This document shows, one piece after another, positions 2,767-42,638 of a stretch of 64,000 nucleotides of DNA. The notes under the pieces are model-generated. The model searched no databases and had not been told where the DNA came from. It saw only the letters and a list, made by a program, of their open reading frames with translations. The first letter of the stretch is position 1, and each line of letters begins with the position of its first letter. The stretch is from assembly GCF_054482525.1 (NCBI RefSeq), contig NZ_CM137006.1; one strand, 5' to 3'. The position numbers and the translations under genes are program-made.

Positions 2767-4905
2767 ATGACACCGCATGTGATGAAACGAGACGGCTGCA
2801 AAGTGCCGTTTAAATCAGAGCGCATCAAAGAAGCGATTCTGCGTGCAGCTAAAGCAGCGGAAGTCGATGATGCCGATTATTGCGCCACTGTTGCTGCGGT
2901 TGTCAGCGAGCAGATGCAGGGCCGCAACCAGGTGGATATCAATGAGATCCAGACCGCAGTTGAAAACCAGCTGATGTCGGGTCCATACAAACAACTGGCT
3001 CGTGCTTACATCGAGTACCGTCACGATCGCGACATTGAACGTGAAAAACGCGGTCGCCTGAACCAGGAGATCCGTGGTCTGGTCGAGCAGACCAACTCCT
3101 CGTTACTCAACGAAAACGCCAACAAAGACAGCAAGGTGATTCCAACCCAGCGCGATCTGCTGGCCGGGATCGTGGCTAAACACTATGCACGCCAGCACCT
3201 GCTGCCGCGTGACGTGGTGCAGGCACATGAACGTGGTGATATTCACTATCACGATCTCGATTACTCGCCGTTCTTCCCGATGTTCAACTGCATGTTGATC
3301 GACCTGAAAGGCATGCTGACCCAGGGCTTTAAAATGGGGAACGCCGAGATTGAACCGCCGAAGTCGATCTCTACGGCAACCGCTGTAACTGCGCAGATTA
3401 TTGCTCAGGTCGCCAGCCATATTTATGGCGGCACCACCATTAACCGTATCGATGAAGTGCTGGCACCGTTTGTCACCGCCAGCTACAACAAACATCGCAA
3501 GACCGCAGAAGAGTGGAACATCCCGGACGCCGAAGGCTACGCTAACTCTCGTACCATCAAAGAGTGCTACGATGCCTTCCAGTCGCTGGAGTACGAAGTA
3601 AACACCCTGCACACCGCCAACGGTCAAACACCGTTTGTGACCTTTGGTTTTGGTCTGGGCACCAGCTGGGAATCGCGCCTGATTCAGGAATCTATCCTGC
3701 GTAATCGTATCGCAGGCCTCGGTAAAAACCGTAAAACTGCGGTGTTCCCGAAACTGGTGTTTGCGATTCGCGATGGCCTGAACCATAAAAAAGGCGATCC
3801 GAACTACGACATCAAACAGCTGGCGCTGGAGTGCGCAAGCAAGCGCATGTATCCGGATATCCTGAACTACGATCAGGTAGTGAAAGTCACCGGTTCGTTT
3901 AAAACCCCGATGGGCTGCCGCAGCTTCCTCGGCGTGTGGGAAAATGAAAACGGCGAGCAGATCCACGATGGTCGTAACAACCTCGGCGTGATCAGCCTGA
4001 ACCTGCCGCGTATTGCTCTGGAGGCAAAAGGCGATGAAGCCACCTTCTGGAAGCTGCTGGATGAACGTCTGGTGCTGGCACGTAAGGCGCTGATGACCCG
4101 TATCGCTCGTCTCGAAGGCGTGAAAGCGCGCGTGGCCCCGATCCTCTATATGGAAGGTGCTTGTGGCGTGCGTCTCAATGCTGACGATGATGTTTCTGAA
4201 ATCTTCAAAAACGGTCGTGCGTCTATTTCGCTGGGTTACATCGGCATCCACGAAACCATTAACGCGCTGTTCGGCGGCGAGCATGTTTACGACAACGAGC
4301 AGCTTCGCGCGAAAGGTATCGCGATTGTTGAACGTCTGCGTCAGGCGGTGGATCAGTGGAAAGAAGAAACGGGTTATGGTTTCAGTCTCTACAGCACGCC
4401 AAGTGAAAACCTGTGCGACCGCTTCTGCCGTCTCGATACCGCTGAGTTTGGCGTGGTGCCGGGCGTGACCGATAAAGGTTACTACACCAACAGTTTCCAC
4501 CTTGATGTGGAGAAAAAGGTGAACCCGTATGACAAGATCGACTTTGAAGCGCCTTACCCGCCGCTGGCGAACGGTGGTTTCATTTGCTACGGCGAGTATC
4601 CAAACATTCAGCACAACCTGAAGGCGCTGGAAGATGTCTGGGATTACAGCTATCAGCATGTACCGTATTACGGCACCAATACGCCGATCGATGAGTGCTA
4701 CGAGTGTGGCTTTACCGGTGAGTTCGAGTGCACTAGTAAAGGCTTCACTTGCCCGAAATGTGGTAACCATGACGCCTCCCGTGTGTCGGTGACTCGCCGC
4801 GTGTGCGGATATTTAGGTAGCCCGGATGCACGTCCGTTTAACGCTGGTAAGCAGGAAGAAGTTAAGCGCCGCGTTAAACATTTGGGAAATGGGCAGATCG
4901 GTTAA
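2767..4905 (+). CDS. nrdD: anaerobic ribonucleoside-triphosphate reductase (glycyl radical enzyme)
   Basis: 712 aa; C-terminal RVCGYLG glycyl-radical motif and Cys-rich Zn site; recognised as NrdD. Confidence 0.95.
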   Translation: MTPHVMKRDGCKVPFKSERIKEAILRAAKAAEVDDADYCATVAAVVSEQMQGRNQVDINEIQTAVENQLMSGPYKQLARAYIEYRHDRDIEREKRGRLNQEIRGLVEQTNSSLLNENANKDSKVIPTQRDLLAGIVAKHYARQHLLPRDVVQAHERGDIHYHDLDYSPFFPMFNCMLIDLKGMLTQGFKMGNAEIEPPKSISTATAVTAQIIAQVASHIYGGTTINRIDEVLAPFVTASYNKHRKTAEEWNIPDAEGYANSRTIKECYDAFQSLEYEVNTLHTANGQTPFVTFGFGLGTSWESRLIQESILRNRIAGLGKNRKTAVFPKLVFAIRDGLNHKKGDPNYDIKQLALECASKRMYPDILNYDQVVKVTGSFKTPMGCRSFLGVWENENGEQIHDGRNNLGVISLNLPRIALEAKGDEATFWKLLDERLVLARKALMTRIARLEGVKARVAPILYMEGACGVRLNADDDVSEIFKNGRASISLGYIGIHETINALFGGEHVYDNEQLRAKGIAIVERLRQAVDQWKEETGYGFSLYSTPSENLCDRFCRLDTAEFGVVPGVTDKGYYTNSFHLDVEKKVNPYDKIDFEAPYPPLANGGFICYGEYPNIQHNLKALEDVWDYSYQHVPYYGTNTPIDECYECGFTGEFECTSKGFTCPKCGNHDASRVSVTRRVCGYLGSPDARPFNAGKQEEVKRRVKHLGNGQIG

Positions 4906-38799: not shown

Positions 38800-39438
38800 A
38801 TGCCCGGGCGCTTTGAACTAAAACCAACCCTGGAGAAAGTCTGGCACGCGCCGGACAATTTTCGCTTCATGGACCCGCTGCCGCCGATGCATCGTCGGGG
38901 GATCATTATTGCCGCCATTGTATTGGTGGTCGGATTTCTGCTTCCATCTGATGATACGCCCAACGCGCCGGTGGTGACGCGTGAAGCGCAGTTAGATATT
39001 CAGTCGCAATCACAACCGCCGACAGAAGAACAGCTGCGGGCGCAATTAGTCACACCACAAAATGATCCTGATCAGGTGGCTCCGGTCGCTCCAGAACCTA
39101 TACAGGAAGGCCAGCCAGAAGAGCAGCCGCAAACCACCCAAACGCAACCATTCCAGCCAGATAGCGGAATTGATAATCAATGGCGCTCCTATCGTGTCGA
39201 ACCCGGTAAAACGATGGCGCAGCTGTTCCGCGACCACGGACTGCCCGCTACCGATGTCTATGCAATGGCGCAGGTTGAAGGCGCGGGTAAGCCGCTGAGT
39301 AATTTGCAAAACGGGCAGATGGTGAAAATCCGCCAGAACGCCAGCGGCGTGGTGACGGGCTTAACCATTGATACGGGGAATAATCAACAGGTCTTGTTTA
39401 CCCGCCAGCCGGATGGCAGTTTTATTCGTGCGCGGTAG
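38800..39438 (+). CDS. ytfB: OapA-domain cell-division protein with Pro/Gln-rich linker
   Basis: 212 aa from ATG at 38800. Confidence 0.85.
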
Positions 39439-39538
39439 ATGAAGGGTCAACCAAAAGCCAGCTAAGGAGCGTCTCTTTGATGACCTTACGTCTGGCTTCC
39501 AGTGCCTGGGGGGAAACCATACTGATATGTTGACATCC

Positions 39539-39558
39539 TCCACGCCCTGAAGGACGTG
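39539..39558. repeat. sub-terminal hairpin CCACGCCCTGAAGGACGTGG (TnpB-proximal end)
   Basis: Perfect hairpin read from sequence; matches the hairpin at the other end except two stem bases. Confidence 0.55.
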
Positions 39559-39572
39559 GATCCCTGCTACGT

Positions 39573-40781
39573 TCAGGCTGTCGCCTGAATCATTTCGGTG
39601 GGTTCCTGCTTCAACGAGCGGCCTGACTGCACCATCTCTCCACAGGCAAGAACGGCGTGTCCCGCCGCTAAAATGTTACGAGCGCCGTTTACATCGGCGT
39701 TCGCTGTATATCCACATACCTGGCATCTGAATTTACTTTGTGACAGGCGATTTTCTTTCGCTGTATGACCACAGCACGCGCAACGCTGGCTTGTGTACGC
39801 TGGCGGAACAGCAAGCACCTGACCGCCACTCCAGAGCTGCTTGTACTCAAGCTGGCGGCGCATTTCATACCAGCCCTGATCCAGTATCGAACGGTTTAAA
39901 CCTGATTTTGCCCGGACATTGCGCCCCGGCTGGCTGACCGTACCCGCTGCTGACTTTGACATGTTGCTGACCTTCAAATCCTCAATGACTATCATTGCGT
40001 GGTTTTTGCTGACGGTCGTTGTGACTTTGTGAAGGTAGTCCCTGCGGATATTTGCGATACAGGAATGCAGTCGCTGTATTTTGCGTTTCTGCTTCTGCCA
40101 GTTGTTGCTGAATTTGACCTTGCGGCTTAACTGTCGCTGAAGTCTCGCCAGCGTCTTCTGGTTTTTCTGAAAACTGTTTACAGGCTCAAAGACTGTGCCA
40201 TCTGACAGCGTGGCGAGTTTAGCCACGCCAGCATCCAGCCCGACCATTGATGCTGAAGGGTGAACCGGAGTTGATACTTCACTTTCTGTCTGAATACTGA
40301 TGTACCACTTACCGCAGGACTGGCTGACCGTGACATTTTTCACAACACCCGTGACCTGACGGCTATTCCGGTAGCGCATCCAGCCCAGTTTCGGCAGAAA
40401 AATACGGCTGTTTTCCTGATCGAGCTTAACGCCCTGCGGGTAGCGGAATGCATCATTCTGTCCCCGCTTTTTGAATCGGGGAAAAGCAGCCCGCTTCTGG
40501 AAGAAGTTTTTGTAAGCCCGCTCAAGGTCTTTCAGTGATTGTTGCAATGGCTGTGAGGGCGAATCTTTAAGCCATTGCGTTTCAGTGGCGTTTTTCCACT
40601 CAACCAGCCAGGAAGCCATTTTCCCGTAAGGGATGTATTTATTACCGGCCTTATGATTCTCATTCTGAAGCGCCAGAGCACGATTGAAAACGAAACGACA
40701 TGCGCCTGCGAAGCGCCTCATTTCACACTCCTGTTGACCACCTGGTCTTAACTGGAATTTAAATGCCTGTAATCGTTTCAC
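39573..40781 (-). CDS. tnpB: TnpB (IS200/IS605 OrfB; RuvC-like RNA-guided nuclease family)
   Basis: 402 aa; GLDAGV (RuvC-I Asp), VIEDL (RuvC-II Glu), CxxC...CxxC zinc finger, DVNGARNI (RuvC-III Asp). Confidence 0.85.
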
Positions 40782-40788
40782 AGGTCAA

Positions 40789-41262
40789 ATGATACTTTGG
40801 TCTGTGAAAAAAGAAACCGATATCCGACGGGGAAGGCATTGTGTTTTCCTGATGCATGTTCACCTGGTCTTTGTCACCAGATACCGACGTCAGATTTTTG
40901 ACTATGACGCGACAGAAAAACTACGCACTTACTTTTCAAATGTATGTGCTGATTTTGAAGCTGAACTGGTTGAAATGGATGGCGAACCAGATCACGTCCA
41001 TTTGTTAATTAACTATCCTCCCAAACTGGCGATATCCAGTCTGGTAAACAGCCTCAAAGGCGTATCGGGTAGGTGACTGCGACGAGATCGACCAGATATT
41101 GCAGTCAGGTATTACTACAAAGGCGTTTTGTGGAGTCCTGGCTATTTTGCCAGTAGCTGCGGAGGTGCGCCAATATCCGTCATCCGCCAATACATTGAAC
41201 AACAGCAAACACCTGGTCAGGTGGAAAACCGCGCCTTATATCCCCGCCCTGAAGGACGGGGT
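40789..41262 (+). pseudogene. tnpA: IS200-type TnpA (Y1 HuH transposase) interrupted by in-frame TGA at 41074-41076
   Basis: 95-aa N-terminal part with HuH-like HVHLL motif; same frame continues after TGA with the conserved LWSPGYF C-terminal motif, then reads through the terminal hairpin. Confidence 0.7.
41242..41261. repeat. sub-terminal hairpin CCCCGCCCTGAAGGACGGGG (TnpA-proximal end)
   Basis: Perfect hairpin read from sequence. Confidence 0.55.
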
Positions 41263-41280
41263 TTTACGGCGCACTGGATA

Positions 41281-41670
41281 AACCAGGCCAAGCGTATGCT
41301 GGTTGATCAAATAATATCCCCCAAGCGCAGCAATATTAATATTCACCTGCAATGGGTCGCTATCTGCCTTAAAAATATTGTGTTTCTTCCCTTCATCCAA
41401 TAATTCCATTAAATGCAAGTGCGCATGATTAATTTCTAAGAGACGCTGTGATTTTGCATAATGCACACCTTTACTTTGGTTTTCACTATGCACAATTTTT
41501 AAAAACCTGGGATTAGCAATATAATAACCCCAGGTAAAATCGATGATTTTTTCAATGGATTTTTGTGGCTGGTTAACCTGCTGATTAACGAACGCACCGA
41601 TACCGACAGCGTAGAATAATTACATACCGCACAACAAGAATGTATGGTGTAAGGCGTTGTCAGTCATCTC
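41281..41670 (-). pseudogene. ytfA: regulator-like remnant at the ytfA position; frame broken by TAA after a 15-codon N-terminal ORF
   Basis: Open frame continues into the IS end; short MTDNALHHTFLLCGM ORF then stop then about 130 in-frame codons; family not assigned. Confidence 0.35.
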
Positions 41671-41843
41671 CCTCCCTGGGTGCACCTTTATATCCGTGAT
41701 GAGCGATTTTTGATATTAATATCTTTTACTATCCGCTATTTTCACCACTTCAGAAAACAAACTTATTTTTATTAATATCGATTATTTATTCTGTGCACAT
41801 TCAGCTGCGATATTTATAAAAAAATTAAACAGGCAAAAATACA

Positions 41844-42638
41844 ATGACATTACCAACCACTATTTATTCATTTCCTGCATATTCACCCCGTTTTTCGTCC
41901 ACCGACAAACCAGTAAAATTAAAATTTCATCAATACGCACGCGCTACATTACTTTCAAATCGTGGAAGAGACCATAATTGCGATGGCAGACATACTGTTG
42001 AGATCCACAAACTAGATCTCTCAGACTGGCAAGCATTCAATAAACTAGCGATGGCGTGTAATGCTTACGATGGAATAACAATGAATGGTGATAATTCTTT
42101 TGGATGGAACCATGAAGCTACATTAGATAATATTCACGCCCAGAAATACAATAAAGCTTACGCGGGTGCGAGGTTAACCGCAGAACTGAAATATTTATTG
42201 CAAGATGTCGAATCCTTCGAACCCAACAGTAAATACACAATACACGAGGTTGTTTTGGGTCCAGGTTATGGTACTCCAGACTATACCGGCCAAACGATAG
42301 GATACGTTGTAACCCTTCCTGCCCAAATGCCTAATTGCTGGTCATCTGAACTACCAACAATCGATCTTTATATCGACCAACTTCGCACTGTTACAGGCGT
42401 TTCTAATGCCCTCGGATTCATCATTGCTGCATTGCTAAACGCGTATTCTGATTTACCCCATGATTTGAAAATTGGTCTGCGTTCCTTATCAGGTTCAGCC
42501 GCAATCTACTCGGGTTTGGGTTTCGAGCGAGTGCCGCAGGAGCGAGACATCAGTTGCGCTCGTATGTATCTAACGCCAGCAAACCATCCTGACTTATGGA
42601 CACAAGAGAATGGTGAATGGATCTACTTGCGAAACTAA
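41844..42638 (+). CDS. yjfZ: hypothetical protein YjfZ
   Basis: 264 aa; AT-rich; conserved position before rplI. Confidence 0.85.
   Translation: MTLPTTIYSFPAYSPRFSSTDKPVKLKFHQYARATLLSNRGRDHNCDGRHTVEIHKLDLSDWQAFNKLAMACNAYDGITMNGDNSFGWNHEATLDNIHAQKYNKAYAGARLTAELKYLLQDVESFEPNSKYTIHEVVLGPGYGTPDYTGQTIGYVVTLPAQMPNCWSSELPTIDLYIDQLRTVTGVSNALGFIIAALLNAYSDLPHDLKIGLRSLSGSAAIYSGLGFERVPQERDISCARMYLTPANHPDLWTQENGEWIYLRN

Follow-up and report, generated by a model that had tools for sequence, protein, structure and literature searches.

A single TGA codon, in frame with the ATG at position 40789, interrupts the Y1 transposase gene, tnpA, of an insertion sequence in the DNA described here, a 64,000-nucleotide stretch of NCBI RefSeq assembly GCF_054482525.1 (contig NZ_CM137006.1) that we refer to below as ‘the window’. 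The interruption raises several plain questions: is the codon genuine, which codon did it replace, how old is it, and what has become of the element that carries it? With high confidence, we interpret the TGA as a nonsense mutation that turned TTA (Leu96) into a stop in the tnpA of the IS609 copy at the ytfA locus, as an old and widespread allele, and the copy as immobile. The TGA is real, but it is ordinary and already known: the common L96* allele, accompanied by a common stop loss, in a fixed and immobile IS609.

The insertion sequence is 1,748 bp long (39530-41277) and is a copy of IS609, of the IS200/IS605 family, in Escherichia coli. It lies inside the ytfA pseudogene, and its neighbours are ytfB and yjfZ. 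The features of the locus are as follows.

39422..39529, minus strand: C-terminal fragment of the ytfA pseudogene (TetR/AcrR family), from the PGAP annotation of the identical PCN033 locus
39530..41277, minus strand: complete IS609, from junction alignments against the empty ytfA site of K-12 BW25113 and against the K-12 ydcL-locus copy
39540..39559, minus strand: subterminal hairpin of the right end; the terminal ...GTCAA comes after it and ends at 39530
39573..40781, minus strand: intact open reading frame of 402 aa, tnpB (insQ), of the RNA-guided endonuclease family (ORF list, Pfam, PGAP)
40789..41073, plus strand: tnpA codons 1-95, the N-terminal part with the HUH motif (ORF list, Pfam Y1_Tnp profile)
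41074..41076, plus strand: in-frame TGA at codon 96, in place of the TTA (Leu96) of intact IS609 tnpA
41077..41217, plus strand: tnpA codons 97-143 in the same frame, with WSPGYF (from 41131), Tyr135 (41191-41193) and Gln139
41218..41220, plus strand: the lost stop at codon 144, CAG here and TAG in intact copies
41221..41403, plus strand: read-through tail of the tnpA frame (translation, element boundary)
41231..41272, minus strand: left-end subterminal imperfect hairpin, core stem 41242-41261 (DNA fold, shared core)
41278..41568, minus strand: upstream fragment of the ytfA pseudogene beyond the insertion (PGAP annotation, junction alignment)

The top strand of IS609 is the minus strand of the window, and the left end of the element is thus at 41277 and the right end at 39530. 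Read along the top strand, the flank leading up to the left end finishes ...TTTAT, and the element itself finishes ...GTCAA. Alignment with the empty K-12 ytfA site reveals a clean insertion after TTTAT with no duplication of the target; at the K-12 ydcL site, too, the left end follows TTTAT. IS200/IS605 elements typically insert 3' of a short, specific sequence and do not duplicate their target site, and in place of terminal inverted repeats they have a subterminal imperfect hairpin at each end. The DNA around the left end (41225-41290) folds with an energy of -16.7 kcal/mol (z -3.3), and the hairpin core, GCCCTGAAGGACG, occurs at both ends in the same orientation (39544 and 41246), whereas two matches were found in 0 of 100 shuffles. 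The accessory gene of the IS605 group, tnpB, is also present, recognizable by three Pfam domains in the 402-aa frame (HTH_OrfB_IS605, OrfB_IS605 and the Cas12f1-like TNB; PF12323, PF01385 and PF07282), transcribed divergently from tnpA, and annotated as intact by PGAP in the identical PCN033 genome. The transposase of the family—a Y1_Tnp protein with an HUH motif and a catalytic tyrosine—is present at the level of sequence only, its gene being broken by the TGA. The name IS609 rests on near-identity in the tnpA region: 97.6% to the copies in O157:H7, in which PGAP gives tnpA the name ‘IS609 family transposase’, and 98.4% to the K-12 copy, known in the literature as IS609. By this measure of sequence, the element qualifies as IS609.

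Even where K-12 has no insertion sequence at the site (L006, 12512-12913), the annotated ytfA lacks its N-terminus, and IS609 therefore entered a gene that is already a pseudogene in K-12. A scan of the locus for promoters and terminators returned nothing above shuffle expectation.

The local sequence at the interruption is GGT AGG TGA CTG CGA. The ORF list places a frame of 95 amino acids (aa) at 40789..41076 and, in the same frame, a second at 41128..41403, which starts at a TTG 51 bp past the TGA and reads MWSPGYF. The upstream half matches positions 1-78 of the Pfam Y1_Tnp profile (PF01797; E 8e-26) and the downstream half positions 81-121 (E 1e-8). Since the two halves match consecutive parts of one profile, they represent one gene with one stop rather than two chance ORFs. 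The description in the earlier note, of a TGA that splits a Y1 transposase gene and of a same-frame segment resuming 51 bp later with a conserved WSPGYF motif, is thus accurate, although this motif is not the catalytic tyrosine.

What the TGA replaced is clear from copies in which tnpA is whole. The orthologous ytfA-locus copies of O157:H7 and E300010 read TTA at codon 96, end with TAG (codon 144), and encode an uninterrupted, 143-aa TnpA. Leucine occupies the position of Leu96 in nine of nine aligned homologues from seven or more genera (the alignment draws on E. coli, Salmonella, Photorhabdus, Morganella, Proteus, Klebsiella, Yersinia and Hamiltonella), and in two archaeal homologues with crystal structures as well. 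The earlier note expected the lost sense codon to be CGA or TGG; alignment with intact copies identifies it as TTA. Near the TGA, the E. coli W ytfA copy differs from the window only at the TGA base itself.

The TGA is not the only lesion. Codon 144, TAG in intact copies, is CAG in the window, and the tnpA frame runs on through the hairpin of the left end, passes out of IS609 at 41277, and stops at a TAA (41401-41403) in antisense ytfA DNA, 126 bp past the end of the element. The TnpA homologues from outside E. coli are 138-146 aa long and all finish ...QQQTP(G/S/D), at the point that corresponds to codon 144. Judged from such alignments, the tnpA of the window carries two derived changes, L96* (TTA to TGA) and a stop loss (TAG to CAG). 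The earlier note had described a frame with no stop of its own that reads through the terminal hairpin into the flank, and it does so. It had also spoken of a single lesion; there is indeed one in-frame stop, but the change of TAG to CAG, which the note had registered merely as a missing stop, is a second mutation. In PCN033, whose copy is identical, PGAP marks tnpA as a pseudogene, with the description ‘internal stop; incomplete; missing C-terminus’.

Stop loss has a consequence for annotation where it occurs without the TGA. In such copies (CAG at codon 144), tnpA becomes an ORF of 204-224 aa that extends into flanking DNA (P0007, P0012 and P0014), and gene callers report these ORFs as normal proteins; P0014 alone has 2,552 member sequences. 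These protein calls are a systematic annotation artefact of IS609.

The TGA separates the HUH motif from the catalytic tyrosine. The histidines of the metal-binding HUH motif, H69 (40993-40995) and H71 (40999-41001), lie upstream, and H69, V70 and H71 are invariant in the homologue alignment. Y135 (in RQYIEQQ, 41191-41193) and Q139 lie downstream. A phmmer comparison with IS608 TnpA (2a6m) aligns residues 16-141 of the query with residues 11-133 of the chain, and the C-terminal offset of this alignment, assuming that the last seven residues are ungapped, places Y135 on Y127 and Q139 on Q131. In IS608 TnpA, established structural work has identified Y127 as the catalytic nucleophile and Q131 as a metal ligand. 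The 95-aa product keeps the HUH motif and is without Tyr135 and Gln139, and strand cleavage and transfer are therefore predicted to be lost. Translation would end after residue 95, and the truncated TnpA would be unable to cut and rejoin the single-stranded hairpin ends. The change of TAG to CAG at codon 144 is a second lesion, which removed the natural stop, and the outcome would be an immobile, non-autonomous element that keeps both hairpin ends and an intact tnpB.

Published work on K-12 bears on this prediction. The IS609 of K-12, which carries the same allele, is described as inactive in transposition, with its transposase gene interrupted by a stop codon (PMC2891674, PMC5009759), and mutation-accumulation lines yielded 0 new IS609 insertions (PMC5009759). 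By analogy with the residue roles in IS608 TnpA and with these K-12 data, the IS609 copy in the window is very probably non-autonomous, as the earlier note had fairly supposed.

The K-12 element, between ydcL and ydcO, resembles that of the window closely. It has the same divergent tnpA and tnpB, with both lesions in tnpA (TGA at codon 96, CAG at codon 144) and a tnpB that is intact at 402 aa. It differs in its site (ydcL-ydcO rather than ytfA) and in point substitutions: V27L and V106F in K-12, H39Y in the window copy. The elements of O157:H7 (tnpA WP_000604943.1, 143 aa) and E300010 are, instead, the orthologous insertion at ytfA, sharing its junctions and its tnpB, and they differ in having tnpA uninterrupted; the TnpA of the window departs from that of O157 also by H39Y, K51N and A131V. 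More distant relatives are IS608 of Helicobacter pylori and ISDra2 of Deinococcus. These share the Y1 HUH transposase (E 3e-19 to 2a6m, E 2e-17 to 2xm3), a TnpB partner, subterminal hairpins, and insertion 3' of a short sequence without duplication. The right end of IS608 finishes in TCAA, and that of the window copy does likewise. In the window tnpA and tnpB diverge, as they do in IS605, whereas in IS608 and ISDra2 they are co-directional; the target in the window is apparently TTAT or TTTAT, in contrast to TTAC or TTGAT in IS608/ISDra2; and the transposase gene of the window copy is broken.

How common is the allele? We searched 5,426 complete E. coli genomes with allele-specific short queries, 45-mers with the variable base at the centre, so that no 28-base seed survives a mismatch at that base. 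Matches with one mismatch were checked, and in these the named allele was present and the mismatch lay elsewhere; cross-matching of the 45-mers to the other allele was rejected on this ground. The counts were:

Codon 96, TGA: 3,376 places, in 2,728 of 5,426 genomes
Codon 96, TTA: 6,322 places, in 3,890 of 5,426 genomes
Codon 144, CAG: 6,678 places, in 4,201 of 5,426 genomes
Codon 144, TAG: 1,616 places, in 1,440 of 5,426 genomes

The TGA allele thus occurs in about half of complete E. coli genomes, K-12 included, and L96* accounts for roughly 35% of IS609 tnpA copies; among E. coli IS609 copies, CAG at codon 144 is commoner still. The same TGA is found in the K-12 ydcL-ydcO copy, in the yedK-locus copies of ACN001 and EcPF16, and in the ytfA-locus copy of KKa019, which is on a different haplotype of both the element and its flanks; altogether, it occupies three or more loci (ydcL, yedK and ytfA) and several haplotypes. 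Other copies are damaged in other ways. At the ytfA locus, tnpA has a 1-bp deletion in E. coli W, Y75* in RIVM_C019217, and the stop loss only in NDM6; at the ydcL locus of EcMAD1 it has E62*. The tnpA gene has undergone long-standing, repeated decay across E. coli, and L96* is the commonest allele of that decay. All four combinations of codon 96 (TTA or TGA) with codon 144 (TAG or CAG) occur. When single-nucleotide polymorphisms (SNPs) are tabulated for nine IS609 copies (loci ytfA, ydcL and yedK), the pattern is strongly reticulate, a sign that paralogous copies have exchanged sequence by gene conversion or recombination, or that mutations have recurred.

The yedK-ybcM locus has some peculiarities of its own. 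The copies there in ACN001 and EcPF16 are missing the right-end hairpin and have a shortened tnpB (1,164 bp) with a divergent 3' end, interrupted additionally by an internal stop in EcPF16, and Rb-23 retains only a remnant of IS609 at this site. A locus with a partial copy in other strains (H93), considered as a further site, proved to be the yedK site again.

The earlier note read the TGA as a recent point inactivation rather than old decay, and the distribution of the allele speaks against this on both counts: an allele found at 3,376 places in 2,728 of the 5,426 genomes, at several loci and on several haplotypes, is not recent, and orthologous ytfA copies in other lineages, where they are not intact, carry independent lesions (a frameshift, Y75*, or the stop loss only). 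Might the TGA at this particular site, nevertheless, have arisen privately, as a recent point mutation that inactivated an otherwise intact tnpA in one lineage? The exact ytfA haplotype is found in three genomes only, and E300010, which comes next in flanking similarity with 98.7% identity over 10 kb, has an intact tnpA. The usual homes of TGA copies, ydcL-ydcO and yedK-yedL, are both empty in PCN033, and offer no IS609 donor at ydcL or yedK. The lone base that sets the window apart from the E. coli W ytfA copy near the TGA fits the same idea. Yet tnpA is not otherwise intact, as its stop codon has been lost too, and the identical allele exists in 2,728 genomes and on the second ytfA haplotype of KKa019. 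The sources of the three carriers are a pig isolate, a human and a dog, and the TGA is therefore older than the common ancestor of PCN033, SCU-102 and 19KM1776. The branch beyond that ancestor is long (1.3% divergence), and so ‘recent’ cannot be demonstrated on it; the genome collection passes from three identical genomes directly to 98.7% identity, with no intermediates by which to date the change. A recent, lineage-private inactivation is consequently an unlikely account. How the allele came to be at ytfA in the PCN033 lineage is a narrower matter. Independent recurrence is possible, because E300010 is intact, E. coli W differs only at the TGA base, and the ydcL and yedK sites of PCN033 are empty; gene conversion from a second IS609-like sequence is possible as well. 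Our searches reported a second IS609-like place in the PCN033 chromosome (NZ_CP006632.1), at neither ydcL-ydcO nor yedK-yedL.

Three alternatives remain. Against a sequencing or assembly error that masks a sense codon, the 10 kb around the TGA are 100% identical in three independent complete assemblies (PCN033, SCU-102 and 19KM1776), and the same 45-mer is exact in about 2,600 other records; this explanation has a negligible probability, and the independent assemblies rule it out. A naturally short, functional TnpA that ends at codon 96 has virtually no chance of being correct, either. Such a protein would be without Tyr135 and Gln139, and the homologues of Salmonella, Proteus, Photorhabdus, Klebsiella, Yersinia and Morganella have leucine here and are 138-146 aa long; the alignment rules this reading out. 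The third alternative is programmed recoding, with UGA read as tryptophan or selenocysteine to yield a low, regulated level of functional full-length TnpA. UGA followed by C is a weak stop context in E. coli, which is a point against a plain nonsense mutation, and the TGA allele is frequent and present on several haplotypes; a trace of read-through product from the UGA-C stop is, going by this context, possible. But the residue conserved at position 96 is leucine, in nine of nine homologues; a scan of 39000-42000 with Rfam found no SECIS element or other recoding RNA family, only matches below threshold, at the 3' end of tnpB; stops and frameshifts of other kinds are found in other copies, which is what neutral decay would produce; and any read-through product would bear an unnatural tail of 61 residues. 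The K-12 copy with the same allele, moreover, does not transpose (PMC2891674, PMC5009759). Recoding is accordingly very improbable, and a nonsense mutation of old and wide distribution is the reading that we prefer.

The partner gene has fared differently. In seven of seven full-length IS609 copies compared, tnpB is an intact, 402-aa ORF, whereas tnpA exhibits at least five different inactivating or altering lesions across genomes. The pN/pS ratio is approximately 0.24 for tnpB versus approximately 0.61 for tnpA, values from a small sample that are indicative only. This limited comparison suggests that tnpB has been maintained after loss of the transposase. The TnpB guide RNA (omega, or right-end, RNA) is expected where tnpB finishes and the element reaches its right end (39517-39700, minus strand), and the Rfam matches in this interval—HgcC (24.6 bits, E 0.007), RAGATH-18 (29.5 bits, E 0.0085) and sot0042 (18.7 bits)—all fall below the gathering score. 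Our search of the literature on InsQ/TnpB found nothing specific to the function of E. coli IS609 TnpB. The L96* allele always has a conserved tnpB next to it. It is conceivable, if very doubtful, that the frequency of L96* reflects selection rather than drift and gene conversion, either for immobilised copies that retain a working unit of TnpB and guide RNA, a ‘domestication’ by host or element, or for a leaky UGA-C that throttles the transposase to trace amounts.

The TGA is, in sum, a pseudogene lesion in a well-known insertion sequence of E. coli, and alone it matters little. In annotation, the IS609 copy described here is best regarded as immobile, and no genes should be called for the 95-aa and 91-aa ORFs or for the long read-through frame. 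That tnpA is broken in many ways in E. coli, with tnpB intact, may be of modest interest to work on how TnpB outlives the transposase.
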